From Bacillota bacterium (GTDB lineage Bacteria > Bacillota_I > Bacilli_A > RFN20 > CAG-826), in assembly GCA_039799785.1 (NCBI GenBank), contig JBDLRZ010000078.1, forward strand, positions 2,973 to 66,972: a stretch of 64,000 nucleotides of DNA, given 5' to 3'. Positions within the stretch are counted from its first letter, which is position 1; the number at the start of each line of letters is the position of its first letter. The notes under the pieces are model-generated. The model was not told the origin of the DNA. It did not search any database and worked only from the letters and a program-made list of their open reading frames with translations. Below are positions 15,017 through 43,894 of this stretch, piece by piece. Both the position numbers and the translations under genes were made by a program.

Positions 15017-15918
15017 ACTTCATCACTTTTTAACCCTAATAATTTTGCCCAGAATGATCGTTTGGGCGTAATTAACTTTGGATGGTCTAAGCATTCTTTG
15101 ATATCGCGTTGAAATTCTAATACCGATCGATATCGGTCATTCGGATTTTTTCTACATGCTTTTAAAATAATTTTTTCAATCACTCTTGGTGTCGAAGGTA
15201 TCCATTGTCTTGGTGAAGGAAATTTTTCTTTGATGTGGCGCATCGCAACCGTTATTTGATTATTACCTTCATAAGGAACCTTGCCTGTAATCAATTCAAA
15301 AAACGTAATACCTAATGAGTAAATGTCACTCTTAAATGTTGGGGATTGTCCGTTGGTAACTTCAGGAGGTAAGTAATGTACCGAACCAATAATGACTTGG
15401 CTTTTGGTTACGCGACGTGAATTCTCAAAAAATGCAATACCAAAATCACCTAGTTTAATCGTTTCATCTGGCGTTAAAAAAACATTATCAGGTTTAATAT
15501 CACGATGAATGACCAATGAATTATGGGCGAAGGCAACCGCATCACAAAGTTGATACATCATCTCACAAGCTTGTTTGAATCCAAAACGTTTTTGTTCATC
15601 TAACAAACCTCGCAAGGTTTTTCCTTTGATGAGTTCGGAGGCCATATAAGGTAAATTTTGATGGTAACCAATATTAATGACACGAACGATATTGGGATGG
15701 TTTAAGGAGGCGGATGCTCTTGCTTCTCTTTCAAATCGGGTCACATTATCTTTAGATTTGATGGCGTTTTCTTTGATGATTTTTAAAGCAATTTCTTTTC
15801 CAGTAATCAGGTCTTCTGCTTGATATACGTAGGCAAATCCACCTTCGCCTATTTCCCTAATGATGCGATAGCGTTCATCAATAATATCGTTGTCTTTAAT
15901 CATCGTTCGGATTCCCAA
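15013..15918 (-). CDS. prkC: Ser/Thr protein kinase (PrkC homologue). It is the kinase domain only, with no TM or PASTA region.
   Basis: Hanks kinase motifs GEGGFAYVY, ALK, HRDIKPDN, DFG; 301 aa total. Confidence 0.85.
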   Translation of the reverse strand: MGIRTMIKDNDIIDERYRIIREIGEGGFAYVYQAEDLITGKEIALKIIKENAIKSKDNVTRFEREARASASLNHPNIVRVINIGYHQNLPYMASELIKGKTLRGLLDEQKRFGFKQACEMMYQLCDAVAFAHNSLVIHRDIKPDNVFLTPDETIKLGDFGIAFFENSRRVTKSQVIIGSVHYLPPEVTNGQSPTFKSDIYSLGITFFELITGKVPYEGNNQITVAMRHIKEKFPSPRQWIPSTPRVIEKIILKACRKNPNDRYRSVLEFQRDIKECLDHPKLITPKRSFWAKLLGLKSDEV

Positions 15919-25354: not shown

Positions 25355-26995
25355 ATGGCATTTAAACTATCATACCTAGGGCAAGAAACCACATTTCAAG
25401 ATAAAGTAGCATTAAAAAAATTGTTGCCAGAACAACACCAATATTTATGTGCCAAGGTGAATCATCGTATACGCGATTTAAATTATGAGGTTTATTTTGA
25501 TGCGAATGTCCAGTTTTTAACCATCATGGATCAAGATGCAGTTAGAACCTATGAAACTTCACTTCGATATTTACTTGCAATGGCAGTCTATCAACTCAAT
25601 CCCTCCTATCGATTTCGTTTTTCATATCATATTTCTCGATCTATCTTTATGGAATTTAGTCACCCTAAAAAAATTGATCCTTCATTTGTCGATAAAATCA
25701 ATCAAAAATTATCACAATTAGTTCAAGATAATCTATCCTTTGATCGAATCATCGTTCCAAAAGATGATGCAATTAAACTATATGAAAAATTAGGTTATCA
25801 AGACAAAATTGACATCTTAAAATATAGGCCTGAAAAAACCGTGCATTTTTATCAAAGTGGAACTTACACGAATTATATGTATGGGATGATGGCAACTTCT
25901 TCTCGACTCATTCAAGATTGGAAATTAATTTATTACCCTCCTGGCATCATCATTCAATATCCACGATCAGAAATGAAAGGTAAAATTCCTGTTTTTGAGG
26001 ATGCACCGATGTTTGGGCAAACATTAAAAGAAAGTCATGCATGGTCAAAAATCACGCAAGCTGATACCGTCGCCAATATTAATCATTACGTCAGTGAAGA
26101 TAAGGTGGTTGATTTTATTAATCTATGTGAAGCAAAGCATGCAAGGATGTTAGTGGAATTAGGTGAGGCTATCGAAAAAAGAAGAGATGAACTGAGATTA
26201 ATTTGTATTGCAGGACCCTCGAGTTCGGGTAAAACGACCTTTGCGAATCGCTTAAGAATTGAGTTGATGTCGAGAGGGTTTCATCCTATTCGGATTTCCA
26301 TTGATGACTATTATTTACCTAAAGAGGAAGCTCCAAAAGATAGTGATGGAAAACCTGACTTAGAAAACATTCACGCTTTGAATTTAACTTTATTTAATCA
26401 ACATTTAGCACAGCTAATCAATGGGGAAGAAGTGACGTTACCCCAAAGTAAGTTTGATGCTTCATTAGGCAAAGCCAAGACATTGAAGATTCAAGAAGAT
26501 ACCTTGATTATTATTGAAGGGATTCACGCCCTTAATGATGCTTTAACGTCTTTGGTTCCAAAGACCCAAAAATACAAAATTTATATTTCGCCACAATCCC
26601 AAATTAATTATGACCACCACAACCCAATGTCCTTAACGGACCTTCGATTATTAAGAAGAATGGTAAGAGATAAAAAATACCGCGGTTCCAGTGCTGAACA
26701 AACCATCGACATGTGGCCATCCGTTCGTCGTGGAGAATTTACATGGATCTATCAAACCCAAGAAGAGGCAGATTATGTGTTTAATTCATTTTTGCCATAT
26801 GAACTTTGCGTGATGAAACGGTATGCGATTCCTTTATTATCAGCGATTGAAAAAGAGTCCACTTATTTTCCAACGGCAGAACGATTGATGCGCATGCTTA
26901 AATATTTTGTTGATATGGAAGAAAAATGGATTCCTTCGAACTCATTAATCCGCGAATTTATTGGTGGTTCTTGTTTTAGAGAAGTGGAAGATTAA
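25355..26995 (+). CDS. Uridine kinase-family protein with N-terminal ThrRS-like/TGS-type extension
   Basis: C-terminal half has P-loop IAGPSSSGKTTFANRL and uridine/cytidine kinase-like motifs; the N-terminal roughly 270 aa is non-kinase; 546 aa. Confidence 0.7.
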   Translation: MAFKLSYLGQETTFQDKVALKKLLPEQHQYLCAKVNHRIRDLNYEVYFDANVQFLTIMDQDAVRTYETSLRYLLAMAVYQLNPSYRFRFSYHISRSIFMEFSHPKKIDPSFVDKINQKLSQLVQDNLSFDRIIVPKDDAIKLYEKLGYQDKIDILKYRPEKTVHFYQSGTYTNYMYGMMATSSRLIQDWKLIYYPPGIIIQYPRSEMKGKIPVFEDAPMFGQTLKESHAWSKITQADTVANINHYVSEDKVVDFINLCEAKHARMLVELGEAIEKRRDELRLICIAGPSSSGKTTFANRLRIELMSRGFHPIRISIDDYYLPKEEAPKDSDGKPDLENIHALNLTLFNQHLAQLINGEEVTLPQSKFDASLGKAKTLKIQEDTLIIIEGIHALNDALTSLVPKTQKYKIYISPQSQINYDHHNPMSLTDLRLLRRMVRDKKYRGSSAEQTIDMWPSVRRGEFTWIYQTQEEADYVFNSFLPYELCVMKRYAIPLLSAIEKESTYFPTAERLMRMLKYFVDMEEKWIPSNSLIREFIGGSCFREVED

Positions 26996-28236
26996 GCTTC
27001 GATTTCTTCAATGGTTTTAGGGATTTCAACCGATAGATTTTCGCAACCTTTTTCTGTAATTAAAATATTGTCCTCAATGCGGATACCGATACCTAATTCT
27101 TTGATATAAAGTCCAGGTTCTACAGTGATGACACATCCGGGTTCTAATGGAATATCACGACCCATTGGATCATGTGTATCAAGGCCTAAATGATGACCAA
27201 CATTGTGATAATAAATAGAACCAATTTCTTCTGGCGTTTTAATGAGTCCTTCTTTGACTGCTGCTTCACTTAAAAACTTCATGACGGCTTGTTGAAGATC
27301 GACAATTTTAAGACCGGGTTTTGCCATTTGAATGATCATTTGGTTAGCTTTTAATACCATAGAATAAATTTGCTTTTGTAAAGGATTGAATTTTCGATTA
27401 GCAGGGTACGTCCGTGTAATGTCTCCACGATATTGTCCAAAGGTCGCCCCTAAATCACAAAGAACAAGCGCGCCATCACTGATTTTATCTTTAGGATTTG
27501 GATAATGAAGCACAACGGCATTTTTACCACTTGCAATAATCGTTTCAAACGCTAATCCCATATTTTGATACTCTTTAATCGCATATTGAAACAAGGCTTC
27601 AATTTGATGTTCGTATAATCCAGGCTTTAAATGTTTACGAATGGATTGTAGTCCATAAGCGGTTCCTTTAATGGCTTGGCGAATAGCCTCAACTTCTTTA
27701 ACTGATTTAATCAATCTTAACTTTGTAATCAATGGATAAATGTTTTCAATAATCAGTTGTGGGGATTGTAACTTTAATTCTTCACCGTAGCTTTCTGGGG
27801 TTTTTAGTTTCCCATCGAGAATTAGTTGCTTTTCTTGATCTAAATAAGCATGCGTAATTTTTCCAAATCCATTTGTGTCTAGTAGCATTTCCTTTAATCT
27901 TGTTTCAAACATAGAAAGCATAAAGACATCATGAATACCACTTAATTTAGTTGCAGTATCCACGTCTAATTTTTTACCAACCCAACGGGTTTTTGTTTCA
28001 TCAATTTCATCGATAAATAAGTAGGTTTTAACGGTTGTTGGTGTTTTGACCATCACTAAGATACTGTTTTCTTGTTCAATGCCAGTTAAATAATAAAAGT
28101 TTTTATTGATCACAAACGGATAGGTCGCATCTGCAGAAGATTTAACCAAACCTCCAGCAAATAAAACAATCATAGATTGCTCCATAACTTGAGCAAATAA
28201 TTTTTCTCTTCTTAATGTGAATTCTTTTGCGTCCAT
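26992..28236 (-). CDS. pepP: Xaa-Pro aminopeptidase (M24B). Start probably MDAKEF at 28236.
   Basis: HNVGHHLGLDTHD, pita-bread metal ligands; ORF-track start 28287 would overlap apbC by 47 nt. Confidence 0.8.
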   Translation of the reverse strand: MDAKEFTLRREKLFAQVMEQSMIVLFAGGLVKSSADATYPFVINKNFYYLTGIEQENSILVMVKTPTTVKTYLFIDEIDETKTRWVGKKLDVDTATKLSGIHDVFMLSMFETRLKEMLLDTNGFGKITHAYLDQEKQLILDGKLKTPESYGEELKLQSPQLIIENIYPLITKLRLIKSVKEVEAIRQAIKGTAYGLQSIRKHLKPGLYEHQIEALFQYAIKEYQNMGLAFETIIASGKNAVVLHYPNPKDKISDGALVLCDLGATFGQYRGDITRTYPANRKFNPLQKQIYSMVLKANQMIIQMAKPGLKIVDLQQAVMKFLSEAAVKEGLIKTPEEIGSIYYHNVGHHLGLDTHDPMGRDIPLEPGCVITVEPGLYIKELGIGIRIEDNILITEKGCENLSVEIPKTIEEIEA

Positions 28237-28240
28237 AAAA

Positions 28241-28996
28241 TTAAAACCTCCATGATTGAACCAATTGACGAATGCTGTCCATGTCAATTGTTTCTATCTT
28301 ACCATTATCTATCAATTTAGGTAATGTTGAATCCAATGGTAGTTGTGCTAGTAAAGGTAACGCATATTTTTCCCATATGGTTGGTCTGTCACTAGTGTGA
28401 AATAAAGGATGCTTCTTCTGACAATGATCACAGATAAAATAACTATAATTCTCAATAATCCCAAGAATAGGTTTGTTTACCATCTTCGCCATTTGAATAC
28501 CTTTACCAACAATATCTTGAACGATATCTTGAGGTGTCGTCACCATAATTATGTTATCAACATTCAAACTTTCAAGGACTGTCATCGATACATCGCCCGT
28601 CCCGGGTGGTAAATCGATGAAAAGGTAATCCAAATCACCCCAAATTACATCCACGTAAAATTGTCGAATCAAATCAAGTACCAAAGGAGACCGCCACACT
28701 ATCGGATCATCCGATTGATCTAAAAGTAATTGGGAAGAAATCAGCCGAATACCTAAGGGGCTTGTAACCGGCAATATCAATCCATCCTGACCAACGACTT
28801 TAGATTGGATTGCGAAAAGTCGAGAAATGGTTGGACCAATAATGTCTGCATCCAGTATCCCTACTTTTTTTCCGATTCTAGTTAAATGTGTTGCGAGTAA
28901 AGCAGTAATGGTACTTTTACCTACACCGCCTTTACTTGACATGATGGCAATCGTATTTTGAGCTTTACTTTGCTGGTTTAAACGATACACCTTCAT
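28241..28996 (-). CDS. apbC: Mrp/NBP35/ApbC family Fe-S cluster carrier ATPase
   Basis: MSSKGGVGKSTITALLA deviant Walker A, C-terminal CDHCQKK CxxC; 251 aa. Confidence 0.85.
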   Translation of the reverse strand: MKVYRLNQQSKAQNTIAIMSSKGGVGKSTITALLATHLTRIGKKVGILDADIIGPTISRLFAIQSKVVGQDGLILPVTSPLGIRLISSQLLLDQSDDPIVWRSPLVLDLIRQFYVDVIWGDLDYLFIDLPPGTGDVSMTVLESLNVDNIIMVTTPQDIVQDIVGKGIQMAKMVNKPILGIIENYSYFICDHCQKKHPLFHTSDRPTIWEKYALPLLAQLPLDSTLPKLIDNGKIETIDMDSIRQLVQSWRF

Positions 28997-28999: not shown

Positions 29000-31900
29000 T
29001 TATGCGTTGAATGCGTATTCAATTTTTTCACCTTCTATTTCAAAAACAAAGTTTAATTCATAAGGTTCTTGACTTAAGGTAGTTAAAATACCACTTGGAT
29101 TTGTAAACGGATTTGGTGTTGTGACCGTAACAATTAAGGCCGAAAGACCATCAAAACCAGAATTCGTAACAATTCTAGCAGCATAAAATAATTGTCCAAC
29201 TTTACTTAAATATGTATTTGACCATCCTGCATAGTTCGTAGCTGTAGGATAAGGCCCACCCGTCACATTCAATGAAATTCTAGAACCCATTTTGATAAGG
29301 GCAGCTTTCATAGCAGTGATATCAGATGAGTTGGGAGTTCCACTAACACCTTTAATAGCAGATAAAAATTCAAGTGACCCTTCTAGACCTATTGCTTCGA
29401 TTGGGTTCAATAGTTCAAAATCAGTATTGCCATCTTGGTTCAAATCATAAAAATTTAATTGTTTAGATATATTATTGGCATCACCGAAAAATATAGCATT
29501 GGTATCTTCTACGATTGCATATTCGCCTTTAAAAATATCGGTGAAAAATCCTGCAGATAATTCTGAAACCATAAAAGCCCGATCTATGATAGTTTGCCCA
29601 GTAGCCATATAAGTCAAATCAATAAGCGAACGCATTTCACTACTATATTGATCTAGACTAGATGCGTCTGATAAACTCGTAAAATTAGAAATAACCCCTA
29701 TAAATTGGTCTAATCGTGAAGCCTCAAAAACTTCATCAAAATCCCCACTAAATATTTCTTCAACTCGAATTACCTTTAATTCTTTATCAGAGGCTAAAGT
29801 GGTTAAGTAATCAAAATACTTACTTACACTTGCTGTATTTAAAAAGTTATAAAATGTTAAAGATCGTGTTTTAAAACTTCCAATTGTGGTTACATTAAAT
29901 GGCGTCAATCCTGTATTGGTGGCATCTGGATTCAATATTTTAGTCGCATTATTTCCAAATATTTGCGAATTACTTAATAAATTTACCAATGGATATAGGG
30001 AACCTCCATCAGCTAAAAAATTACTGACATTGAAGCCACCACTTATCGATATATACTCTTCTGTGATTTGATCATAAAAGCTATTTAATAATCCATCAAT
30101 AAGTCCAGAAGAAATGACGGTGCCAGGAAGAGTAGAATAATTCATAACGTTAATATCGGCTGATAAAAATTGAACCGGCGTTAATTCATAGGTTTCATTG
30201 TTTTCAGTATAGGTTCCAAAGTTGATGCTACTAAAAGCATCCTTAACCATTTTTTTTACAGCGTCTGCTGTCAGTGATGAATAATTTAAGACTGACATAA
30301 TTCTTCCAATTGAACTAGGAGACAAAGCTCCTGCATCTATACTTGAGGCATTACCTAAGTTAGGTAAAGCGACTTTTAGTTCCTTAAAAATTCTAAAGAA
30401 TGCATTGATTTCTCCTACATTTTCGTCATCAAGCCAGTTATCGGTTAAGTGGGTCGAATTATTGGTTGGAAAAAGCGTTACATAATTTAGAACTAATGCA
30501 TCTGCTTTCGCATTCGCATTTCCATAAACAGCGTCTGCCAAGCGAGCTGCATCATAAGCCAGGCTGGCCATACCTGTATCCTTAAACATTTTTGCCATCA
30601 TTTGCTCAAAGATTGTTAAATCATCAGCATCGGCAGTTGAAGGACCAGTTAAATGAAAGACTTGAGAATCATGTAAATCTCTTACTAAATTAGCCATATC
30701 ATCAATTGCTTGGTCTGATAAATCTTTAATTGAACCATAAGCACGATTACCAACAACTTTCACATCCGAGAAAATAGATAAAATTGCTGAAATTTCAGCG
30801 TTATCGTAAGGCATATATTGATCTCCAACTGAAAGATTATTAGGATCATTTCTTGTTCCTCTATAACGGAAATTGGCAAGAGTAAAATCAACACCTACTG
30901 AAGAAAAATCCCCTCCTTCTAGCATATTAGAGAATAAATTTGGAATTGCAGGATAAACAATTGTGGAGTTATTCATACTTAATAGTAGGTTTTCTATTTT
31001 CGCTAAACCTACTGGTGTATCAATTAAATTTGATAATGTATCAGAAGAGCCTGCTCCAGAAAAAGAAGCAAAATCTAAGTCTAAATCTTTAAAGGCTTCT
31101 AAAATGGAGATAATCTTTGAAATTTCTCCCGTGCTACCTTTCCAACTATCAGGATTAATTGAAACTGCAAAATTATTAGGAATTACACTTATATCATCTT
31201 GTAAATAGTTAAGTCGATTCGTGTTGCTTTCACCATCAAAAACAAATGTATCAAGTGTGGAAGTGTTTATGATCATTCTTACCGTTTGTTCAAAAATTGT
31301 TAAGTTATTGTTTGCATATGAATTGCCAGTCTTAAATGAATTAAATACATAAGAATCGTGCATTTTATTCAATAAGTCATTAAATAAAACTGGATTGATT
31401 AGTTCTGAAGTAAAGGCAGTTCCACCAGTTAAACCAATAGCATTGATATCTGAATAAATGTCTAAAATTTGGGAAATTTCTTGGCCCCTATCAATTTTAC
31501 TTGACTCAACATTAAAGTAATTTGTATTTGCATCGCTCATGGTTAAACCATTGATATTAAAGGAATCGGAATCAAAGATGTTACCAAATAGATTTCCAAT
31601 CGAGGGAGCGACTAATGTTGAGTTGTTCATTGACAATAATAAATTCTCTACTTTTGCTAGGCCCGGACCTGTACTCAATAAATCAGAAATCGCATCGCCA
31701 CCAAAGTTAGCAAAATCAATATCGGTTTCTTTAAAGGATTCAAGGATGCCAATAATTTGATTAATTTCACCGTTATTTCCAGTCCAATCATCATCCGTCA
31801 AACCATTGCCAAAATTATTTTCTAAATCCGCAATATCATCTTGCAGTAACAATAATCTATTTGCATTAATCGGCTCATCATAGATAAAGGTATCAAGGGT

Positions 31901-34900
31901 TGAGGTATTTAAGATCATCCGAACCGTTTGTTCAAAAATGGTTAAATCATCGAGTAAATAACTATTTCCTGATTTAAAGGAATTGAAAACATTAGAATCA
32001 TGCATTTTATTGAGTAAAGCATCAAATAAAACTGGGTCTATTAAATCAGCTGAAAATGCTGCTCCACCGGTAATACCAATACTATTGATATCCCAATAAA
32101 TATCGAGAATTAAACTAATCTCCGTTGCTCGATTGACTTTGAGTGGTTCTTGATTAAAAAAATTCGTGTTCGCATCTGACATGGTTAACCCACCAATATT
32201 AAATGCATCAGAACCAAAAACATTTCCAAATAAATTTCCTATGGCAGGTGAAATTATGGTTGATTCATTCATGGATAATAAAAGATCTTCTACTTTTCCT
32301 AATCCAACTTCTGTATTCAATAAATCACCAATTGCATCTCCACCAAAGTTGGTAAAATCAATACCGGTATTAACAAAGGCCACCATGATATCAACAAAGC
32401 GTTGAATTTCGCCATCGATGCCATCCCAATCATCCGGTGTTTCCGTTCCAAAATTATTATCAAGTGACGTCATGTCTTGATAAAGTGCTGCCTCTGTTTG
32501 AACTTCAGTAAGGCCATCATAAATAAAAGTGTCTAACGTAGCAGTGGTCAACAGAAATTGATAGGCTTGTTCAAACACGGTAAGGTCGCCATTGGTTCGT
32601 GAGCGACCTAATTTAAATGAATTAAATAAGGCAGCGTCGTGGAGAATCGTGAGTAAATCGCCAACCGTAAGAATGGTTGATTCGTCAAAATTTGCAATAT
32701 CAAAGGCACCCCCACCATCAAGGCCCATATCACTAATCGTGTCTAATAAGTCTGCGGTTGCTTGAATTTGTTGGGCACGACCAGCTTGATTTAAATCTAA
32801 AAATACAAAGGTATTTGTTTGTGATAATGAAAGGGAACCAATATCAAAATTTGAACCACCAAAAATAGAGTCATAAACGTTAAACACAAGCACCCTTAAA
32901 GATGATGCATTGTTCAATGCGAGTAATACATCGGAAATGGTTTGACCATTTAATCCTGTGCCAGAAGTAAGATCTGTAATCGATACAGATTGTAATTCTG
33001 CAATAAATCCAACGATATTTTCTAATTCACCACCAACGTATTCATATTGAATATCTCCATTGACGTCCAAAATTGGATCATTATTAATATCGGTGATCAT
33101 GGTCTTAACACCATACCAATTGGCTCTTGTTGAGGTTTGATTACTAATCGCATAGAAATCTTCGGTTACGATGGTGAAATTATCAGCTGGATTGTCATCC
33201 CATGTTGATTGATATGGAGAAGGATCTTCAAAATAACTGGCAAGATCAGCAATGCCGGTAAGTTGATCTAATAAAAAATCTGGAAAGACATAATCTCCAT
33301 TGGGTTTGATAAAGATTTGTGATGCGGCTAAGCCTTGTAGAAGTTCTTCAATCATCGTTACATCTGAATTTAAAAAATCGATATTTTCTAAACCATCAGC
33401 AAAATTAGTTAACTGCTTGACGAGATACATCAAGTTAGAACCTTCTTCTGTCCAAGATGTCACGTTTCTAAATGAAGTCCCTAAATCTGGATCTAATAAG
33501 CCACCTGTGGAACCAAATAAGTTATCGAGAATACCACCAAATGCAGCGGCAATAATTTCTGAACGATCTGCATAGGCAAAGATTTTGTAGAGTGTTGCCA
33601 CTTCTGGGTCATCGATATCTTCACTACCTGTTGTTAAGTCTTCTAAAGCTGCAAATAAATCGCCAGAAATATCGAGTAAACCTGATTCTAAAGCGGTTTT
33701 TAAGAAATTAATAAGGTGGAAATTTTCACCTCTAAAGGAAATGGTATCCAATTCATCCAATTTATCATTACCATTGGTGTCGATAAAAGTTGTGGTCCAT
33801 CCATTTTCCAAACCAGACGGTCCAACACGATTAAATCCTGTATCAATATCCGTCTCCTCGATACCAATGCCTTCAACTAACGAAAAGATTCCTTTGATGA
33901 TTTGATTAAAATTTGTGGTCTTATTGTTCGTATCAGGGTTTAGATTGATAATATCGGAATAATAAATATTATCGAGCAAACCAATTAAATCGTATGCAAT
34001 CGTCGGAAACTGATTCAATAAATCCGAGCTAGCGTCTAAAACATTAAACGCATATCCCATCATATCAACCACGATGGTTAATTCTCTGGATAAGCTTTCA
34101 AAATCAAAATTTAAATCAGCAGTCGTCAAAGAAATTAAACTTAAGAAGTCATCGAACCCAGCTCCAGTTAAAGTAGATTCAAGAATGCCAGGTACAACGG
34201 TTAAAATAATTTGTGAACGATCAAGAGAAGGAATTAAGTCTGCTTTTAAACCAAGTCTAAATTCTCCATCCTCAAGTAAAGCAAGAATATCAAGAGTTTG
34301 ACCAGGTTCTGGCTGGATCAAACTGATGAGCGTTTCATTTCCCAATACAGCCCCTAAAATACTGAAAATTCCACCAAATTCATCTTTGTAATCAATACGT
34401 ATGTCACCACTGGTTCCGGCATTAAAATCTGAGATGAGTTCATTTAATTCCGTGTCATCAAATTCTGCACCAGCGACACTCGTTAGCGTTGGCAATAGTA
34501 AATCCTCAACAATGGATGGTAAGCCATTTACGATTAAATCGGAATCCAATAAGGAACGACGATTGATTGCTTTACCAGTTGTGGGATCATTATTTATCGG
34601 TAAGCCATCTTCATCAACTTCCCCAATCAAAATTTCCACGAATAAATCAAAATGATCTTTTAACAAGTCAATTAAGGTTGGCGTTGGTTCATCAACTGCT
34701 TTTCTACCGAATGGAACTTGATCTTGATTCATGGGTAAAACAACATCAAGTAAACCATCAACTCCTTCATTTAGCTCATAAACCAATTCATAAATTAAAC
34801 TTAATTCTGAACCAAATGAAATCGATTCATATTCGCTCCATTCTGTTGGTAAAAAAGTGGATAAACCGATACCACCTGCAGGGCCTCCTGCTTCGACTTC

Positions 34901-36229
34901 ATCCGTCACTAATTGATATAAAACTGCAGGAATGACTTGTGATAAAAATGGAGATTCATCAAGGGTTTCCAACATCATGATTACTTCATCTTTTGCCTGA
35001 GCGGTAAACATTGAATTTAGAAGGGTTAATGTGTCTGTATTGCCTTCAAGAATTGGGGTTAAAACGCCAGAACGAATGACACCAGTGAAAATATCGCCAA
35101 GATATTGAAGTTCTTCTTCCCAAACCAAATCATCCAACGTAATTAAGTCGGAATCTAAATACGCAGAAACTTCATCTAAATTAAGTCCAATTGTAACTGC
35201 AATCGGTAGAATTTTCATGATTAACACTGATCCAGTTAATGATGTAATTAAATTATTCACAACATCTTCCGTGATTAATAAAGATGTGTCGATTGTACTA
35301 AATGTGCTATCCACTGCACCGCTACCAATGAGCGTTGCTGCAATATCTACAAATGAACCCAATTCATTCGCGAGTGTTAATCGATATGCATCTAAATCTT
35401 GTCCAGTGACATAATCCATTAATGCGGTGTCAATACTTAGACCATCATCCGTTAGCGACCAAGAAAATAAAGTTTGGGCAAAAGTTGAATCATTATAGGC
35501 ATTCACAAAAGACATGATTTCGTTATAAAGTTCACCATCAATTTGATCACCATACTCATCATCAAAATCTTTAAATGAACCGGTGATGGTGTTAACCAAG
35601 GATGTAAAAGGTGAAAGAAACATCGTTAATACCAACACCATTTTTAATGCTCCCGCTAAAGCACCAAAAAGTCTCATTTTTGCCTTTTTTCTAAGGTTTC
35701 TTGGAATTAAAAAGCGGAAAGGTATGAAGTAAAGGATGGCTGCAATGGTTTCACCAAGGAAGAATATGATGACTGCCAAGACGATGAAAACGAGATATCT
35801 TAAAATTACCAATGTTAAACCAATTATTAAATCTGCAATGGCAGGGGTGATAAAAAAACCGAACGCAAGCAGAGACTGCTCTAATATTTCATAAATCGTT
35901 TCATATGGGGTCGTAACAGCAACAATGATGGGTGCTCCATTTAAATTAAGTGAAATTGAACTAAAACCTGCGCTTGAAGCTAAACTTGAAATATCAAAGT
36001 CCATTGCAAAATCAACTATCTGCCGTGTAAATAAAACCGAAGCAATAACTAATCCACCAACAAAAAATAACCGAAAACCTTCTCGCCAAATGCCTCTTAA
36101 AAAACCTAAAATAAATCCTAATGCAACCATGCCAAAAATTCCATATAGGGCGTAATCTAAATACTGTGCAATCTGGCCTGGATCAATTCCAAAACTTAAA
36201 ATCGTTTGCATATTAAACCTCCAAGGCAT
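29000..36229 (-). CDS. Giant (2409 aa) cysteine-free, acidic, membrane-anchored repeat protein; putative surface protein of unknown function.
   Basis: Single uninterrupted ORF. N-terminal roughly 215 aa contains about 5 hydrophobic helices. The remaining roughly 2200 aa is D/E/N/S/T/G-rich with no Cys. At least 3.5 tandem roughly 210-aa repeats (TLDTFIYD...NNFG...DDW...GEI...DIDFxNFGGDA...LLLSMNxST...IGNLFGN...GLTMSDANTN...LLNKMHDS.VFNSFK). Confidence 0.8.
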   Translation of the reverse strand: MPWRFNMQTILSFGIDPGQIAQYLDYALYGIFGMVALGFILGFLRGIWREGFRLFFVGGLVIASVLFTRQIVDFAMDFDISSLASSAGFSSISLNLNGAPIIVAVTTPYETIYEILEQSLLAFGFFITPAIADLIIGLTLVILRYLVFIVLAVIIFFLGETIAAILYFIPFRFLIPRNLRKKAKMRLFGALAGALKMVLVLTMFLSPFTSLVNTITGSFKDFDDEYGDQIDGELYNEIMSFVNAYNDSTFAQTLFSWSLTDDGLSIDTALMDYVTGQDLDAYRLTLANELGSFVDIAATLIGSGAVDSTFSTIDTSLLITEDVVNNLITSLTGSVLIMKILPIAVTIGLNLDEVSAYLDSDLITLDDLVWEEELQYLGDIFTGVIRSGVLTPILEGNTDTLTLLNSMFTAQAKDEVIMMLETLDESPFLSQVIPAVLYQLVTDEVEAGGPAGGIGLSTFLPTEWSEYESISFGSELSLIYELVYELNEGVDGLLDVVLPMNQDQVPFGRKAVDEPTPTLIDLLKDHFDLFVEILIGEVDEDGLPINNDPTTGKAINRRSLLDSDLIVNGLPSIVEDLLLPTLTSVAGAEFDDTELNELISDFNAGTSGDIRIDYKDEFGGIFSILGAVLGNETLISLIQPEPGQTLDILALLEDGEFRLGLKADLIPSLDRSQIILTVVPGILESTLTGAGFDDFLSLISLTTADLNFDFESLSRELTIVVDMMGYAFNVLDASSDLLNQFPTIAYDLIGLLDNIYYSDIINLNPDTNNKTTNFNQIIKGIFSLVEGIGIEETDIDTGFNRVGPSGLENGWTTTFIDTNGNDKLDELDTISFRGENFHLINFLKTALESGLLDISGDLFAALEDLTTGSEDIDDPEVATLYKIFAYADRSEIIAAAFGGILDNLFGSTGGLLDPDLGTSFRNVTSWTEEGSNLMYLVKQLTNFADGLENIDFLNSDVTMIEELLQGLAASQIFIKPNGDYVFPDFLLDQLTGIADLASYFEDPSPYQSTWDDNPADNFTIVTEDFYAISNQTSTRANWYGVKTMITDINNDPILDVNGDIQYEYVGGELENIVGFIAELQSVSITDLTSGTGLNGQTISDVLLALNNASSLRVLVFNVYDSIFGGSNFDIGSLSLSQTNTFVFLDLNQAGRAQQIQATADLLDTISDMGLDGGGAFDIANFDESTILTVGDLLTILHDAALFNSFKLGRSRTNGDLTVFEQAYQFLLTTATLDTFIYDGLTEVQTEAALYQDMTSLDNNFGTETPDDWDGIDGEIQRFVDIMVAFVNTGIDFTNFGGDAIGDLLNTEVGLGKVEDLLLSMNESTIISPAIGNLFGNVFGSDAFNIGGLTMSDANTNFFNQEPLKVNRATEISLILDIYWDINSIGITGGAAFSADLIDPVLFDALLNKMHDSNVFNSFKSGNSYLLDDLTIFEQTVRMILNTSTLDTFIYDEPINANRLLLLQDDIADLENNFGNGLTDDDWTGNNGEINQIIGILESFKETDIDFANFGGDAISDLLSTGPGLAKVENLLLSMNNSTLVAPSIGNLFGNIFDSDSFNINGLTMSDANTNYFNVESSKIDRGQEISQILDIYSDINAIGLTGGTAFTSELINPVLFNDLLNKMHDSYVFNSFKTGNSYANNNLTIFEQTVRMIINTSTLDTFVFDGESNTNRLNYLQDDISVIPNNFAVSINPDSWKGSTGEISKIISILEAFKDLDLDFASFSGAGSSDTLSNLIDTPVGLAKIENLLLSMNNSTIVYPAIPNLFSNMLEGGDFSSVGVDFTLANFRYRGTRNDPNNLSVGDQYMPYDNAEISAILSIFSDVKVVGNRAYGSIKDLSDQAIDDMANLVRDLHDSQVFHLTGPSTADADDLTIFEQMMAKMFKDTGMASLAYDAARLADAVYGNANAKADALVLNYVTLFPTNNSTHLTDNWLDDENVGEINAFFRIFKELKVALPNLGNASSIDAGALSPSSIGRIMSVLNYSSLTADAVKKMVKDAFSSINFGTYTENNETYELTPVQFLSADINVMNYSTLPGTVISSGLIDGLLNSFYDQITEEYISISGGFNVSNFLADGGSLYPLVNLLSNSQIFGNNATKILNPDATNTGLTPFNVTTIGSFKTRSLTFYNFLNTASVSKYFDYLTTLASDKELKVIRVEEIFSGDFDEVFEASRLDQFIGVISNFTSLSDASSLDQYSSEMRSLIDLTYMATGQTIIDRAFMVSELSAGFFTDIFKGEYAIVEDTNAIFFGDANNISKQLNFYDLNQDGNTDFELLNPIEAIGLEGSLEFLSAIKGVSGTPNSSDITAMKAALIKMGSRISLNVTGGPYPTATNYAGWSNTYLSKVGQLFYAARIVTNSGFDGLSALIVTVTTPNPFTNPSGILTTLSQEPYELNFVFEIEGEKIEYAFNA
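30880..33200 (-). repeat. In-frame coding tandem repeats, period about 630-650 bp, at least 3.5 copies, inside the giant gene (approximate boundaries).
   Basis: Repeated protein blocks. Plus-strand shadow ORFs 30963, 31539 and 32166 share similar peptides (for example ASPPKLAKSI / ASPPKLVKSI) at about 630-650-bp offsets, showing nucleotide-level repetition. Confidence 0.7.
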
Positions 36230-36292
36230 TTACACCCTTATTTTATATGATTTCAGTATGCTATCATATGAAAAAGATAAATATATTTAAAG

Positions 36293-37060
36293 ATGTTAAT
36301 ACAGTCTAATCAAAATGAGCTTATATCAAGAAAACATTCGTTGGCACTTTTTTTTCTAGGCTGGCTAGGTTTATGGATATTTGCACTCATATTTGCGATT
36401 CTTATTCCAATCATTGCACCATGGTTTTTAACTCAAAGCGATGCAACTTTATTTCTAGAAAGTCCATTCTTTTTCCAACTCATTAATTTTTTAACTTATC
36501 TTTTCATCTTTTTGATTGGCCTAACGATATTATTACCTTATATAGGACGTTCATTTTTACCTGCAATACAATCTTCAAAATGGCTATTAGGATTACCGTT
36601 TACCTTTGTGATTCTTTTAAGTTCTTATGCACTCATCACTGTTTATGATTATCTTGGAATTGTCTTGGAAGATAATCAAAATCAAAGTGCGATTGTAACC
36701 CTTGTTCAAGATTCACCCATTATTTCACTGATTACATTTGGCTTTTTAGGCCCCATCGTTGAGGAATGGACTTATCGATTAGGTATTTTTAAGTACCTAA
36801 AACAGCGGAATAATCTACTAGCATACTTGGTAACTTTGACCATTTTTGGATTTATCCATTTTGATTTTACGGCAACTAATTTAGTCAATGAACTGTTAAA
36901 TTTACCGATTTATTTGATTGCCGGAGCTTGGTTTTGCTTCCTTTATGATAAATTTGGACTACAAGTCGCATTATCAACTCATATCATGAATAACGTATTC
37001 TCAGTCTTAGCGATTATATTAGAGGCGAATTTTATAAGTTCGTCAGGTTCATTGGTATGA
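36293..37060 (+). CDS. CPBP-family intramembrane metalloprotease (CAAX protease / Abi family)
   Basis: GPIVEEWTYRLGIF (EExxxR motif) and FGFIHF (FxxxH) signatures; 255 aa polytopic. Confidence 0.75.
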   Translation: MLIQSNQNELISRKHSLALFFLGWLGLWIFALIFAILIPIIAPWFLTQSDATLFLESPFFFQLINFLTYLFIFLIGLTILLPYIGRSFLPAIQSSKWLLGLPFTFVILLSSYALITVYDYLGIVLEDNQNQSAIVTLVQDSPIISLITFGFLGPIVEEWTYRLGIFKYLKQRNNLLAYLVTLTIFGFIHFDFTATNLVNELLNLPIYLIAGAWFCFLYDKFGLQVALSTHIMNNVFSVLAIILEANFISSSGSLV

Positions 37061-37914
37061 ATAACCCAAGAAGTTTTAGTGCTTATCAACTGAAATGGTT
37101 AGCAATTATGACGATGACAATCGATCACTTTGGAGTATTGGTTTTATTACCTTTTGCTCAAACTGAAAGCATTGCTACCCTTTACCTCATTGCAAGATTA
37201 ATTGGTCGACTTGCTTTTCCGTTATTTGGTTTTATGATCGCTGAAGGTATTTATCGTTCAAAAAAACCAATTCAATATATCGCTCGAATTGCGCTGATGG
37301 GATTATTTATTGGCATAGCCATGTTCTTATTAGGTGAATTTGGCATCCAAACTTTATCAGGTAACATTTTTATTGATTTAACCATGGCTGCACTCGCTAT
37401 GTATTTACTCAAACAACAACATGTGCTCATTCGCTTTTTGGCATTGATACCGATTTTTTATGTAATGATAACCAGTTTTACCAATCAATTTCCAAATTAC
37501 TTAAGTGCAGATTATGGCTTTTATGGATTGGTGATGATGATATTATTTTTCCTTTCTTATCAAAAATTGCCAACCTTTTTTTATCAATTGAACCCATTTA
37601 AATTCTCCTCAACGGAATTTACCATTGAACAAAAACGATATCAAATGGCGAGTGTCATTTTCATCCTCATGCATATACTTTGGTATATAATTAGTCTTGT
37701 TTTGAATGATGGATTGAATCTTTCAGGACCGATTGTTTCGTATATCAATCGATTTGTTGGTGCCCAAACCTATGCCGTGTTCGCTGCCTATTTTATTTAT
37801 CACTATCGAGGGGTCAAAGGTTCAACTCCAAAGTGGTTCCAAGTCTTCACATACTTATACTATCCATTACATTTTGTTGCCCTATACGCGATTTATTATC
37901 TTGTCAGTTTATAA
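37057..37914 (+). CDS. TraX-family membrane protein
   Basis: N-terminal LKWLAIMTMTIDHFG motif typical of TraX family; polytopic; 285 aa; 4-nt overlap with the CPBP gene. Confidence 0.6.
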   Translation: MNNPRSFSAYQLKWLAIMTMTIDHFGVLVLLPFAQTESIATLYLIARLIGRLAFPLFGFMIAEGIYRSKKPIQYIARIALMGLFIGIAMFLLGEFGIQTLSGNIFIDLTMAALAMYLLKQQHVLIRFLALIPIFYVMITSFTNQFPNYLSADYGFYGLVMMILFFLSYQKLPTFFYQLNPFKFSSTEFTIEQKRYQMASVIFILMHILWYIISLVLNDGLNLSGPIVSYINRFVGAQTYAVFAAYFIYHYRGVKGSTPKWFQVFTYLYYPLHFVALYAIYYLVSL

Positions 37915-38432: not shown

Positions 38433-39047
38433 ATGAATTACGAAATTATTTTAGCAACAAACAACGAAGCTAAAATTGTTGAAATAAAGAGTTTTTTTAA
38501 AGACTATACCGTAACATTTTTAACCTTAGACGATGTTAAATTAAAGTTAAAACCAAAGGAAACAGGTAGAACTTTTTTAGAAAACGCTCTCCTTAAAGCG
38601 AAGGCTGTAAGTAAGCATGTGAATAAAACGGTTGTTGCGGACGATTCGGGTTTACAAATTGATGCCCTCCATGGTTTTCCAGGTGTCTATTCATCACGCT
38701 GGTTAGAAGACAAACCATACGAAGAAAAAAATAAAGAAATTTTACGATTGATGAACGTACATAAAAATAGAAAAGCCCAATTTACCAGTGCCTTTGTCAT
38801 CTTATATCCACATCAAGAAATGCGCTTCTTTGTTGGCACTACCATTGGAAAAATAACCCGAGAAATTGATCAAAATCAAAATGGATTCGGTTATGACCCT
38901 ATTTTTTATAGTGATGAACTGTTAAAAACCTTTTCCCAAGCTACCATTGAGGAAAAAAATAAAGTGTCCCATCGTGGTAAGGCCTCAGCGAAGTTACTCC
39001 AGTGTTTGTTAGATAAACGTTTAATTACAAAAATTAAATCAAGATGA
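38433..39047 (+). CDS. rdgB: Non-canonical purine NTP pyrophosphatase (RdgB/HAM1, dITP/XTPase)
   Basis: N-terminal ILATNNEAK and FGYDPIF motifs; 204 aa; TGA stop overlaps the next ATG (ATGA). Confidence 0.85.
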   Translation: MNYEIILATNNEAKIVEIKSFFKDYTVTFLTLDDVKLKLKPKETGRTFLENALLKAKAVSKHVNKTVVADDSGLQIDALHGFPGVYSSRWLEDKPYEEKNKEILRLMNVHKNRKAQFTSAFVILYPHQEMRFFVGTTIGKITREIDQNQNGFGYDPIFYSDELLKTFSQATIEEKNKVSHRGKASAKLLQCLLDKRLITKIKSR

Positions 39048-40330
39048 AGAATCGAACGACGCAATGGTTTAGAATCGATAATGCGGGAAAACTTTTTCCA
39101 ATTATTACTGAAACTAGAAGATCTTCCTATTTTCGAATGAGTGTCATGCTAAAGGAAACGGTTGACCCAGTCGTCCTACAAAAAGCTACTGAAAAAACGT
39201 TATTTCGATTCCCAAATTTTAACACCCGATTACAAAGGGGCCTCTTTTGGAACTATTTAGAAAATCAGTCCAAAGCATTTAAGGTTTTACCTGATCCTAA
39301 TACATTTGGATCGAATAGTAGACCCTTTGATAGCTCAAAACATTTAATTGAAGTTTATTACCATCGTAACCGAATTGCCATTGAAGTTTTCCATGCAATC
39401 ACGGATGGCCGTGGAGGGATGGAATTCTTAAAAACACTTACTCTAGCTTACTTAAGAGAAAAAGGTTATGCAGTCGAATCTGAGGGCATCATTTTTGATG
39501 CCAATGATCAAGTTACACAGGCTGAACTTGAGGATAGTTTTGCCACGAAGGTAACCAAAGGTAAGAGCATTTGGATGCCAAGTAATAAAGCTTACCACCT
39601 TAAAGGCACATACTTCGAACATAATGGTCATTATCTAACGCATGTACATTTAAATACAGAAAATTGTATTGCGATTGCAAGGCAATTTCAAACTACGGTT
39701 ACAGGTCTTTTTGCGACTATTTTAATTTTAGGGCTCATCAAAAAACAGGAAAGTGAAAATCCCAAAAAGCGAAAACCAATTATCCTTTCCATTCCAGTCG
39801 ACATGAGAAAATATCTTCCTTCCAAAACAATGAAAAACTTTGTAATGACGATCAATATTGGAAAAGTATTTTCACCTCAAGCTACTTTTCAAGACGTTCT
39901 CCACGAGGTCAATTTACAATTAAAAGAGGGTCAAAAAATTGAAATATTAGCACCTCAAATTCGTGCCAATATGAAAGCTGAAAGAATGCTTTTGTTGAGA
40001 TTTGTTCCTTTATTTATCAAAAGATGGATTGTGAAAAGTGTCTTCAATCGTGTCGGTGAACCTGCACTAAGTTTAACGATGTCAAACCTTGGAAAAATTG
40101 AAATGCCTTTGACTACCCAACAATATATAGAGCATTTTGAATTTATGATCTGCTCAACACCAATTGTGCCGATAAACTTAGGTGTTGCATCTTTTAAGGA
40201 CCAACTTGTCCTTTCATTTTCTAGAATTATCGATGATCGAACATTTCTAAACTTTTTCATCCAATACCTTGTAAATGAACTTAAACTTGAGGTTTTTGTC
40301 TCTGGAAATCGTTGGGAGGAACAAGATTAA
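39044..40330 (+). CDS. Acyltransferase with condensation-domain-type HxxxDG motif (WS/DGAT, PapA5, alcohol-acetyltransferase-like superfamily)
   Basis: HAITDGRGG catalytic-type motif at about residue 120, 428 aa soluble protein. Translationally coupled on both sides (ATGA with rdgB; TAATG with the downstream zinc-ribbon membrane gene). Confidence 0.55.
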   Translation: MKNRTTQWFRIDNAGKLFPIITETRRSSYFRMSVMLKETVDPVVLQKATEKTLFRFPNFNTRLQRGLFWNYLENQSKAFKVLPDPNTFGSNSRPFDSSKHLIEVYYHRNRIAIEVFHAITDGRGGMEFLKTLTLAYLREKGYAVESEGIIFDANDQVTQAELEDSFATKVTKGKSIWMPSNKAYHLKGTYFEHNGHYLTHVHLNTENCIAIARQFQTTVTGLFATILILGLIKKQESENPKKRKPIILSIPVDMRKYLPSKTMKNFVMTINIGKVFSPQATFQDVLHEVNLQLKEGQKIEILAPQIRANMKAERMLLLRFVPLFIKRWIVKSVFNRVGEPALSLTMSNLGKIEMPLTTQQYIEHFEFMICSTPIVPINLGVASFKDQLVLSFSRIIDDRTFLNFFIQYLVNELKLEVFVSGNRWEEQD

Positions 40331-42433: not shown

Positions 42434-43894
42434 TTACTGAACTTTTATTTTTTTCGATTTTCTAGTTAAAAAGTAGTGATAAATTGAAAAAATCAGTACC
42501 AAAATAACCAAAACAACGATCAAGGACACCCAGCCTTGTGATACGATTCCGACAAAAAGAAGCAATGGAAAACCTAATGGGATTGCCATTGAAGATCCAT
42601 AGACAATATCATTTGCTGCGGGGGTTTCAAAATAAGGGTCTTTCTCCCTTAATAAAGCGATACCAGTTGAAGCGGTGCCAGTCATGGTTCCATAAAAGAC
42701 CAACCAAGCTTCGTGTGTGTAATGCGGGTAAACGATTTTGGTAAGGTACCCTAGATAGTTATATGTGATGAAACCGCCACCGATGACCAAGACCAGTAAG
42801 CTGACTAAAAAGCCCGGATCTCCGACGAGAGTGATATCAATCGCCATAATGGACGCAATCATCATAATGTCAAAGGCAAAACCTGCAATACGGTTAAGTA
42901 GAAAATCGTTGGTATAAATTCTTTGCATCCATTTGGCCCTTAACAAACCACGCGTAATTACTTTATAGAGTAGGGCAATAAACACGACGATAATAAAATT
43001 AAATCCATAAAGTAAGGGTCTAAGGTTGTTTATTAAAAATGCAACACCACTATTTAAAATGAGTTGTTCTAATATGAAGATTACCAACCAGGAAATACCA
43101 TAAACAAAGAAAATAATGGCAATTTGAATTGTTAATTTATCCACGGCATCTACAAGGGGAATCTGTCCATTACCTTCTAAAACCGTTGACTCTTCTTTAC
43201 TTTCCATGGAAGTTTCTTGGCTGGTTTTTAATAAACCTAATCGTTTAAGTTTTCTTAAGTAAATGACGCCACCTAATGAAGCGGCTAAAAATCCGATGGA
43301 GGCAATTGATAAGCCAAAGTCGCGCCCAAAACTGAAGCCTACGTTTTGAAAAACTGCTCCAACATTCAATGCTTGTCCAGGTCCTTGGCCATAACCCATT
43401 GGTAGCAAGAAACCTACATAAGCAGGTATGTTGATAAAGATGAAACTTAAGACAATGGTGACTAATAATCCAAAAATACCTTGGATTAGGTAAGAGTTCA
43501 CAATGACCATACCACTTTTGACAGCAAGAGGTTTGTTGCGTATTCGACCTTCATTAAGTCGATCGATACCTTTTAATGTTAATGCTCCGAAACCAATTGC
43601 AATCGCATGATAGGTGAACGCACTTAATGTGTTTGCATCAAATAAGCTCGTGGAGGCGATTTCAAGATTTGCAATCGCAATGTCACTTCCATTGAATAAA
43701 TATTTAATCAATAACCCCAAAAATCCACCAATGACTGCCACAGGTAAAAGTGAAGCTTTTAACCATTTAATTTTTCGTCTAAGGATATTCGCCAATAACA
43801 AAACGGACATTATAAGGGCAAACTGAATAATACTACTCCAATAAAAATTAAAGTCCCAAAAAGGAAGCGGCTGGACGTTTGATAAAACCATCAT
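42434..43894 (-). CDS. GltS-like (ESS family) sodium:solute symporter-type membrane protein
   Basis: About 12 TM; motifs PMGYGQGPGQAL and FYGTMTGTASTGIALL resemble the re-entrant loop motifs SGGHGTGAA and GLGATPTAIANM of E. coli GltS; 486 aa. Overlaps the end of the upstream acyltransferase gene by 47 nt. Confidence 0.5.
   Translation of the reverse strand: MMVLSNVQPLPFWDFNFYWSSIIQFALIMSVLLLANILRRKIKWLKASLLPVAVIGGFLGLLIKYLFNGSDIAIANLEIASTSLFDANTLSAFTYHAIAIGFGALTLKGIDRLNEGRIRNKPLAVKSGMVIVNSYLIQGIFGLLVTIVLSFIFINIPAYVGFLLPMGYGQGPGQALNVGAVFQNVGFSFGRDFGLSIASIGFLAASLGGVIYLRKLKRLGLLKTSQETSMESKEESTVLEGNGQIPLVDAVDKLTIQIAIIFFVYGISWLVIFILEQLILNSGVAFLINNLRPLLYGFNFIIVVFIALLYKVITRGLLRAKWMQRIYTNDFLLNRIAGFAFDIMMIASIMAIDITLVGDPGFLVSLLVLVIGGGFITYNYLGYLTKIVYPHYTHEAWLVFYGTMTGTASTGIALLREKDPYFETPAANDIVYGSSMAIPLGFPLLLFVGIVSQGWVSLIVVLVILVLIFSIYHYFLTRKSKKIKVQ

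Follow-up and report, generated by a model that had tools for sequence, protein, structure and literature searches.

What could a bacterium of an uncultured Bacilli lineage be doing with a single gene of 7.2 kb whose product is strongly acidic, repetitive and free of cysteine? The gene lies on the minus strand of a 64,000-nucleotide stretch of DNA (hereafter, the window) from a Bacillota bacterium (assembly GCA_039799785.1, contig JBDLRZ010000078.1, positions 2,973 to 66,972). An earlier reading made from the letters alone (hereafter, the sequence-only reading) took its product for a typical adhesin or variable surface antigen. Our computational follow-up favours a different answer. Quite likely, the protein consists of a CvpA-like four-pass membrane anchor followed by an exported, polyanionic, alpha-helical repeat domain of ~2,190 residues, the length of which is set by modules of 214 amino acids (aa). 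The fuller statement, that it is a constitutive polyanionic scaffold or coat of the cell envelope and comes from an uncharacterised family, is in our judgement evenly poised.

The giant gene and its protein family

The minus strand of positions 29000..36229 is one unbroken open reading frame (ORF) of 2409 codons according to the ORF list and its translation. It is the longest ORF listed for the window and takes up 11.3% of it, in agreement with the sequence-only reading, which had called it the largest gene present (about 11%). Could it be an assembly artefact or a pseudogene? Five or more independent contigs carry identical copies of the protein, and metagenome-assembled genomes (MAGs) of 11 GTDB species contain orthologues of full length, so this possibility was rejected: both the giant ORF and its protein family are real. 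The start of the gene is defined by two features:

29000..36211, minus strand: giant gene in its most likely extent, coding for 2403 aa and ending in a stop codon (ORF list; NCBI and JGI annotations 100% identical; orthologue N-termini align with M7); the mechanical ORF reaches 36229
36218..36222, minus strand: Shine-Dalgarno sequence GGAGG, 6 nt 5' of the ATG at 36211, read from the sequence

The start region on the minus strand reads AAGGGTGTAAATGCCTTGGAGGTTTAATATGCAAACG. The second ATG (36211) is probably the true start, giving 2403 aa, because it is preceded, at a distance of 6 nt, by a perfect GGAGG, because both NCBI (RL379_827) and JGI annotate a protein of this length, and because the N-termini of the orthologues agree. 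The alternative start at 36229, preceded only by a weak AAGGG, was rejected. Residue numbers throughout follow the 2409-aa numbering.

A first protein search returned 39 relatives, 35 of which (37–100% identity) form a clade; according to a genome scan, the close ones come from MAGs of lakes and rivers that bear no label beyond Bacilli or Bacillota bacterium. Four distant homologues, of 1584–2369 aa and 22–26% identity, can be aligned over the full length, with the strongest similarity in the first ~1000 aa. A family profile was then built from the first ~1000 aa of seven diverse members and compared with 1.84 billion representatives; it matched 790 clusters (50% identity) at E ≤ 1e-3 and 240 at E ≤ 1e-30. 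The best 150 profile matches are mostly proteins of 1,200–3,000 aa, matching from about residue 1 to about 1000. All named family members are called "hypothetical protein" and come from Bacilli, Bacillota or Firmicutes MAGs, and some distant relatives derive from samples that look animal-associated. A limited literature search found no paper describing the family, for which there is no Pfam or NCBIfam model and no solved relative.

The composition of the protein is unusual, and its description in the sequence-only reading as cysteine-free and highly acidic is accurate. It contains no Cys and has 333 Asp and Glu (D+E) vs 106 Lys and Arg (K+R), which gives a net charge of −227 and a pI of 4.05; it is rich in L, D, I, S, G, T and N. 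The acidity is even along the chain and universal in the family (median D+E 15.4% vs K+R 6.5%). Cys makes up 0.595% of the residues in the 54 other long ORFs of the window, and at that rate the probability of finding none in 2409 residues is 5.7e-7. Cys is also absent from 31 family members, all of the freshwater clade, while the family-wide median is 11; Cys-freeness is confined to this oxic freshwater clade. Aerobic Firmicutes have been reported to exclude Cys from exported proteins far more than anaerobic Firmicutes do (PMC2823432), and the Cys exclusion seen here fits that pattern for an exported domain in a lineage of oxic waters, with the caveat that the proteins of the window are Cys-poor in general. 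An EF-hand or other Ca-binding array was also considered and rejected, as the one near-match lies inside a non-conserved insertion.

A CvpA-like anchor with a predicted outward-facing C-terminus

How is such a protein attached to the cell? Its hydrophobic helices are restricted to the first ~215 aa, where the sequence-only reading had located about five of them; four, not five, probably span the membrane.

35585..36181, minus strand: CvpA-like membrane anchor, aa 17–215 (hydropathy; AlphaFold2 (AF2) helices; Pfam Colicin_V as top match in 10 of 12 members; positive-inside statistics)

Hydropathy and the AF2 model place helices at aa 17–45, 47–76, 108–122, 129–174 and 184–229. From the N-terminus, the anchor comprises a first transmembrane helix (TM1, ~23–45), a basic loop (RGIWREGFR), TM2 (~54–74) and an acidic 50-aa outer loop with a beta-hairpin, after which come a long helix (129–174) that contains TM3, a second basic loop (RFLIPRNLRKKAKMR) and TM4 (~187–213). 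A further candidate TM helix at aa 327–352 was rejected, being short and charged in the distant homologues, and is better regarded as a buried helix.

Colicin_V/CvpA (PF02674) is the only Pfam family that the anchor recalls, with a best E of 5.9e-4 among the 12 members scanned singly, whereas an NCBIfam scan of the anchor domain gave no match. The residues invariant in the family (G36, R39, G40, G153, P170, K175, R180 and P201) are located in CvpA-like motifs, and two motifs are conserved, namely G-x-x-R-G after TM1 and R-x-x-G-x-x-x-G-x-x-K entering TM4. We treat the similarity as a resemblance; membership in the CvpA family is not demonstrated.

The charges of the loops were then averaged over 176 family members. 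The N-terminal tail carries a mean of 0.15 K/R and the loop after TM1 carries 2.4 K/R in 9 aa, while the second loop has 1.5 K/R and 4.35 D/E in 50 aa. The loop before TM4 contains 7.35 K/R in only 16 aa, and the approximately 31 residues after TM4 contain 2.0 K/R and 5.0 D/E. This charge asymmetry, together with four membrane spans, points to a topology in which both the N-terminus and the C-terminus are outside. CvpA itself is predicted to be a four-pass protein with the same orientation, and the length of its periplasmic C-terminus varies among species (bioRxiv 10.1101/2020.09.25.314492). A four-pass topology with an extracytoplasmic C-terminus, as in CvpA, is therefore what hydropathy, AF2 helices and charge statistics predict. 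The notion of a giant surface protein with a multi-pass N-terminal anchor, already put forward in the sequence-only reading, is in this way supported at the level of prediction by the loop charges, the CvpA topology and the exclusion of Cys.

The large domain is predicted to be a helical-repeat structure

The part of the protein that follows the anchor contains, besides the repeat units described below, two helical regions:

33605..35584, minus strand: non-repeat helical region, aa 216–875 (AF2 pLDDT 81.7, nearly all alpha-helical; together with the anchor, the most widely conserved part)
29003..30379, minus strand: C-terminal helical region, aa 1951–2409 (pLDDT 85.7 in the second AF2 model; motif scan; near-invariant C-terminal columns)

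Two AF2 models were computed from family alignments, one for aa 7–1100 (pLDDT 81.7, pTM 0.57) and the other for aa 1295–2409 (pLDDT 85.7, pTM 0.66). Both consist almost wholly of helices of 10–25 residues joined by short loops, and the protein ends in a conserved NFVFEIEGEKI motif. Foldseek returned no match at E ≤ 0.001 for either model against the PDB or for the first model against BFVD. The best PDB matches (E 0.01–0.1, TM-score ~0.1, 9–12% identity) are all alpha-solenoids, with importin-9, CAND1, SA2, transportin, SF3B1, VIRMA and Pds5 (HEAT/ARM-type) as the top names. A sequence-profile search of the PDB yielded no match, and Pfam and NCBIfam scans of the whole protein and nine sub-fragments, at E up to 5, produced nothing significant; matches to Xre_MbcA_ParS_C, EAD6 and a PGI model were at chance level and were discarded. 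On the models, the fold class is predicted to be a helical repeat without a specific structural relative.

These structural matches raise the question of whether the large domain might lie inside the cell, as a membrane-tethered alpha-solenoid scaffold that is cytoskeleton-like or serves as an assembly platform. The only structural resemblance is indeed to cytoplasmic and nuclear HEAT/ARM scaffolds, Cys content is normal in the wider family, and the gene is tightly linked to, and probably co-transcribed with, genes for the cytoplasmic proteins ApbC, YigZ and PepP (see below). However, the matches are not significant (E ≥ 0.01), and a cytoplasmic domain would put ~10 K/R in short outside loops and the acidic loops inside, contradicting the positive-inside rule across the 176 members. 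Furthermore, the prediction for a CvpA-type anchor is an outward-facing C-terminus, and complete loss of Cys is found only in the oxic freshwater clade. The sequence-only reading had itself named a topology prediction that puts the large domain in the cytoplasm, with homology to a known cytoplasmic scaffold, as a finding that would speak against a surface protein; the Foldseek search gave only the non-significant HEAT/ARM matches, and the loop charges point outside. We consider a cytoplasmic scaffold unlikely.

Whole 214-aa units are gained and lost between species

The sequence-only reading described at least 3.5 near-identical tandem repeats of ~210 aa and called for a self-comparison that would define their boundaries. 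Fragment self-BLAST, unit alignment and DNA comparison agree on a tandem period of 214 aa (642 nt), and the self-BLAST delimits four clear units at aa 1087–1950, to which a degenerate fifth can be added:

32972..33604, minus strand: degenerate unit U0, ~aa 876–1086 (hhalign of the unit profile with the family sub-alignment of aa 816–1075: probability 87.8%, E 3.3e-6, 169 columns)
32330..32971, minus strand: unit U1, aa 1087–1300 (self-BLAST, unit alignment, unit hidden Markov model (HMM); the first units of all orthologues form one clade)
31688..32329, minus strand: unit U2, aa 1301–1514, middle type (65% aa identity to U3; a unit type gained or lost among species)
31043..31687, minus strand: unit U3, aa 1515–1729, middle type (self-BLAST, unit alignment, HMM, tree, DNA repeat)
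30380..31042, minus strand: unit U4, aa 1730–1950, the last and divergent unit, in which two insertions occur (25–38% identity to the others; the last units of all orthologues form one clade)

The tandem repeat as such is thus confirmed, but its near-identity is not. While U2 and U3 share 65% of their amino acids, U1 shares 40% with U2 and 35% with U3, U4 shares 25–38% with the others, and the 642-nt repeat has a DNA identity of 71–75%. Tandem Repeats Finder did not detect the array, because the units are too diverged. The unit profile used with hhalign was built from 60 units of orthologues, and its comparison across the family alignment gave no convincing match beyond U0.

The relatives have lengths that cluster at about 1965, 2195 and 2415 aa. 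In a MAFFT alignment they differ by sharply bounded deletions that remove precisely one unit (214 aa) or two (427–432 aa), and by the unit HMM related species have 2, 3 or 4 units. The units fall into three clades in a neighbour-joining tree, one of first units, one of last units and one of middle units, which holds lineage-specific pairs (for example, P0032_2/3 and P0012_2/3). Tree and counts together give an architecture of first–(middle)n–last with n = 0–2, in which the middle unit has been gained and lost repeatedly between species rather than within them. Length was also compared in ten clusters of ≥90% identity, many of which comprise twelve or more sequences drawn from different metagenomes. 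All full-length members had the same length within each cluster, and two members of odd length that were checked (P0423 and P0406) proved to be N-terminal truncations. The suggestion that the repeat block is a substrate for copy-number variation therefore holds over evolutionary time, as species differ by whole units, but not within these ten clusters, where the length is fixed; the units of the giant gene itself are only 71–75% identical in DNA.

The protein evolves like its neighbours rather than like a variable antigen

If the protein were a variable antigen, its sequence should bear the marks of it. We compared the giant protein and four other proteins with their counterparts in five freshwater relatives, designated L001, L002, L003, L006 and L007. 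Identities, in that order, are:

Giant protein: 96, 80, 78, 76 and 68%
ApbC: 96, 74, 80, 81 and 73%
CPBP: 88, 63, 78, 70 and 63%
TraX: 85, 54, 76, 68 and 56%
Enolase: 98, 93, 96, 96 and 93%

By this comparison, the giant protein evolves like an ordinary membrane or housekeeping protein, about as fast as ApbC, CPBP and TraX. Its conservation is even as well, at 0.56–0.79 in blocks of 100 aa (the gapped middle units excepted), with no hypervariable region. Even conservation and a neighbour-like rate are unlike what a variable antigen would display.

These data bear directly on the adhesin or variable surface antigen of the sequence-only reading. On this explanation, changes in repeat number would give antigenic or size variation as in the mycoplasma Vsa/Vlp proteins or the repeat adhesins of Gram-positive bacteria. 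In its favour are the great size of the protein, its predicted location at the surface and its block of modular repeats, together with the difference between species in unit number (2, 3 or 4) and the lineage-specific duplications of middle units. On the other hand, the Pfam and NCBIfam scans contain no adhesin, Ig-like or lectin domain, and the predicted fold is all-alpha. A motif scan found no LP.[TSA]G anywhere and no C-terminal hydrophobic segment of the kind on which a sortase anchor depends. A lipobox is impossible in a protein without Cys, and the Pfam scans revealed no SLH, CWB2 or other wall-binding module, which leaves the N-terminal TM domain as the sole anchor. A protease or other catalytic domain was likewise not detected in the Pfam and NCBIfam scans. 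Moreover, the units are too dissimilar (25–65% in amino acids) and the protein too constant in length within clusters drawn from many metagenomes; its divergence matches that of neighbouring genes; the gene stays at one housekeeping locus even in relatives of 23% identity; and the close relatives come from lakes and rivers. The claim of a typical adhesin or antigen was accordingly not upheld, and we regard this explanation as distinctly improbable.

Gene neighbourhood

The genes around the giant gene are those that the sequence-only reading had named, as Pfam matches confirmed:

28241..28996, minus strand: Mrp/ApbC-type Fe-S cluster carrier ATPase, downstream (Pfam ParA/NUBPL 3e-79; NCBIfam MrpORP and ApbC matches under cut-offs)
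26992..28236, minus strand: Xaa-Pro aminopeptidase gene pepP (M24), downstream (Pfam AMP_N and Peptidase_M24; synteny)
36230..36292, no strand assigned: short spacer between the divergent giant and CPBP genes, with minus-strand sigma-70-like promoter candidates (promoter scan)
36293..37060, plus strand: CPBP (Rce1-like) intramembrane protease-family gene, divergent (Pfam Rce1-like 7e-14; synteny)
37057..37914, plus strand: gene for a membrane protein of the TraX family, sharing 4 nt with the end of the CPBP gene (Pfam TraX 2e-23; weak TrbP/TraX match in NCBIfam)

The apbC gene starts 3 nt past the stop of the giant gene, with no terminator-like site between them, and because of this short gap the two are probably co-transcribed. 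In the divergent region, the promoter scan gave three overlapping 9-of-12 matches at 36308–36240, which are consensus matches only, in a region that holds fewer promoter-like sites than its own shuffles.

The same neighbourhood recurs in the relatives. Downstream of the giant gene come Impact_N/YigZ and/or the Mrp/ApbC ATPase, then pepP and often an FGGY kinase; in all the relatives examined pepP is found downstream, as a rule separated from the giant gene by one or two others. On the other side, the CPBP gene adjoins the giant gene in 9 of the 11 family loci examined and is absent only from a distant branch (L021/L022), and TraX, then thioredoxin and Ham1, follow CPBP wherever the contig is long enough; one locus has a RelB/Fic pair interposed between the CPBP and giant genes. 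The whole order, with TraX and CPBP diverging from the giant gene, Impact_N/ApbC and pepP, is kept in nine loci down to 23% identity. In the present data, the adjacency of CPBP and TraX is indistinguishable from this general synteny.

A 546-aa uridine-kinase-like gene on the other strand is also conserved near the giant-gene loci. Its product in the window (25355-26995, plus strand) has a uridine-kinase/PRK domain only at aa 280–478, and the ~270-aa N-terminal half has no assignment; the gene is kept at the same position in the distant relatives L013, L015, L017, L020 and L023.

The branch that lacks CPBP (E about 1e-11 to the profile) differs in other respects. It has giant paralogues in tandem, two or three in number and 893–2910 aa in length (L022:1118-17357, L021:1979-13972), which have the same N-terminal anchor (GFLRGxKK motif), 14–17% D+E, 3–4% K+R and 0–3 Cys. 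Their divergent neighbour, in place of CPBP, is a Trypsin_2 serine protease. In MarP, a serine protease is joined to a CvpA-like membrane domain, and the position of the Trypsin_2 protease beside CvpA-anchored paralogues recalls this arrangement.

Does the anchor, rather than the large domain, perform the function? In that case, the CvpA-like domain would be the functional core, a conduit for small solutes or ions or an envelope-stress transducer like CvpA and MarP, and the giant domain would be an appendage that serves it in sensing or regulation, perhaps after processing or modification by CPBP/TraX. The most distant branch shares the anchor and the ~400 aa next to the membrane, CPBP–TraX is divergently adjacent in nine loci, and the Trypsin_2 protease takes the position of CPBP in the distant branch. 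TraX is known as a pilin N-acetylase, and LnsB, a CPBP family in NCBIfam, is annotated as a lipoprotein N-acylation protein; the CPBP–TraX pair could be a system for the N-terminal modification of membrane proteins. Variable CvpA C-termini have, in addition, been proposed to bind periplasmic partners (bioRxiv 10.1101/2020.09.25.314492). However, the CPBP gene matched neither LnsB nor any other NCBIfam model, and the similarity to CvpA is sub-threshold. A domain of ~2,190 residues conserved over its full length exceeds the needs of a sensor, and the entire neighbourhood is syntenic (Trx, Ham1, PRK, FGGY), so that adjacency alone shows no functional link. A CvpA-centred function thus seems to us improbable.

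A bolder idea is that the giant protein, CPBP and TraX form a dedicated envelope module, in which an exported polyanionic alpha-solenoid of tens of nm would act as an exoskeleton or a teichoic-acid substitute, its reach set by the number of 214-aa modules. Extracellular alpha-solenoids of such a size with a CvpA-type anchor would then amount to a class of bacterial envelope architecture not described before, and a CvpA-type domain would gain its first structural role. We consider this a long shot.

A proposed envelope scaffold or coat

We return to the favoured reading, an envelope scaffold or coat. The protein would be a vertically inherited, constitutive envelope protein of the lineage. Its divergent CvpA-like four-pass domain would anchor it in the cytoplasmic membrane with both ends outside, and TM4, preceded by a loop with about 7 Lys/Arg, would act as a signal-anchor. 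The ~2,190 residues that follow would be exported and would fold into one long, strongly acidic, alpha-solenoid-like structure, with the number of middle modules (0, 1 or 2) setting the length of the protein in each species. Such a coat or scaffold would hold cations or water, space or protect the membrane, shape the envelope, or organise partners. Export of the large domain, its surface location and its function as a scaffold or coat are all what we infer from the features above. We find this reading the most economical because the gene is large, occupies one conserved locus across a broad lineage, and encodes a product that is uniformly conserved and charged.

Several points weigh against it. 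The structural neighbours of the models are all cytoplasmic scaffolds of eukaryotes, and the probably co-transcribed downstream genes encode cytoplasmic proteins (ApbC and PepP). All Colicin_V matches among the 12 members fall under the Pfam gathering score (29.3 bits), that of the window protein reaching 9–9.8 bits (E ~1–2). The predicted topology hinges on the 46-residue helix 129–174, which has a conserved R/K at 144, crossing the membrane once. Members of the wider family contain Cys in ordinary amounts. Finally, the coat or scaffold role is read from size, charge, fold and conservation.

A gene that takes about 11% of a 64-kb window implies heavy spending by the cell. If the predicted outside location holds, the poorly understood CvpA membrane domain would gain a concrete role, as the anchor of a large extracytoplasmic structure. 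For annotation, the anchor, the ~800-aa conserved region and the 214-aa modules together make a recognisable new family, and the case is a warning against default adhesin labels for giant repeat proteins.

Other genes of the window

Four further acidic ORFs lie in the window:

47843-49588, minus strand: ORF of 581 aa
42434-43894, minus strand: ORF of 486 aa
22362-23645, plus strand: ORF of 427 aa, with a weak NFACT-R_1 match
39044-40330, plus strand: ORF of 428 aa, with a weak PapA5-like acyltransferase match, adjoining a DUF6320 gene

None has a significant Pfam or NCBIfam match where scanned, and the first three are without Cys; all four are candidates for additional lineage-specific proteins that are secreted or belong to the envelope. 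At 43848-46202 (minus strand), an acyltransferase (PF01553) gene stands beside a 375-aa ORF with no Pfam match, and in one relative the corresponding position is taken by a GT4-family glycosyltransferase (L019:66-1999). Acyltransferase and 375-aa ORF/GT4 may be a pair for glycolipid synthesis.

Two genes touch on whether the organism is wall-less, as the sequence-only reading had entertained. A PrkC/PknB-type Ser/Thr kinase at 15013-15918 (minus strand), in a run of rsgA, kinase, rlmN and rsmB, is only 301 aa long and consists of the kinase domain, without a TM helix or PASTA repeats, which hints that the organism may not sense peptidoglycan. A Cu-oxidase_4 gene at 52735-53559 (plus strand) belongs to the YfiH/PgeF family, which is linked to the editing of peptidoglycan precursors in walled bacteria. 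The two point in opposite ways, and neither is decisive.

Comparison with known systems

Among characterised proteins, CvpA (PF02674) and MarP are the closest in the membrane part. The giant protein shares with them a four-pass N-terminal domain, a basic R-G loop after TM1, a G-x-x-x-G TM4 after a basic loop, a predicted N-out and C-out orientation, and an extracytoplasmic C-terminal extension of variable length. E. coli CvpA is small with a short tail, and MarP carries a protease domain. Unlike these, the giant protein stays under the CvpA gathering score, has a 50-aa insertion between TM2 and TM3, and appends about 2,190 residues of helical repeat in which no catalytic domain was detected.

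The Ebh protein of Staphylococcus is a giant alpha-helical surface protein with FIVAR/GA modules, a C-terminal TM helix and a proposed role in envelope integrity instead of classical adhesion. Proteins of this type are, like ours, very large, acidic, helical, modular, membrane-anchored and extracytoplasmic (the last being predicted for the giant protein). In contrast, there is no relationship in sequence or domains, as none of their modules was detected in the giant protein; its anchor is an N-terminal four-TM domain instead of a signal peptide plus a C-terminal TM helix; and its modules are 214 aa long and few (2–5). The Vsa/Vlp proteins of the Mollicutes resemble it in a surface-exposed repeat region (predicted here) and in repeat numbers that differ between lineages. 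They differ in having a lipobox Cys, in repeats that are short and near-identical rather than long and diverged, and in belonging to multigene phase-variable systems, whereas the giant gene occupies one conserved locus and shows no length variation in species-level clusters.

With the HEAT/ARM proteins (importin-β, CAND1, cohesin SA2 and SF3B1), the giant protein is predicted to have long arrays of paired helices in common, and they are the only structure class among the best Foldseek matches for both halves. Still, these matches are not significant, there is no HEAT/ARM match in Pfam, and those proteins are cytoplasmic or nuclear and eukaryotic, whereas the giant protein is bacterial and predicted to be extracytoplasmic; should it indeed lie outside the cell, a giant alpha-solenoid in that position would be unusual for a bacterium. 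Overall, giant membrane-anchored surface proteins and CvpA-anchored fusions are both already known, and what is new here is their combination with a predicted extracellular giant alpha-solenoid.

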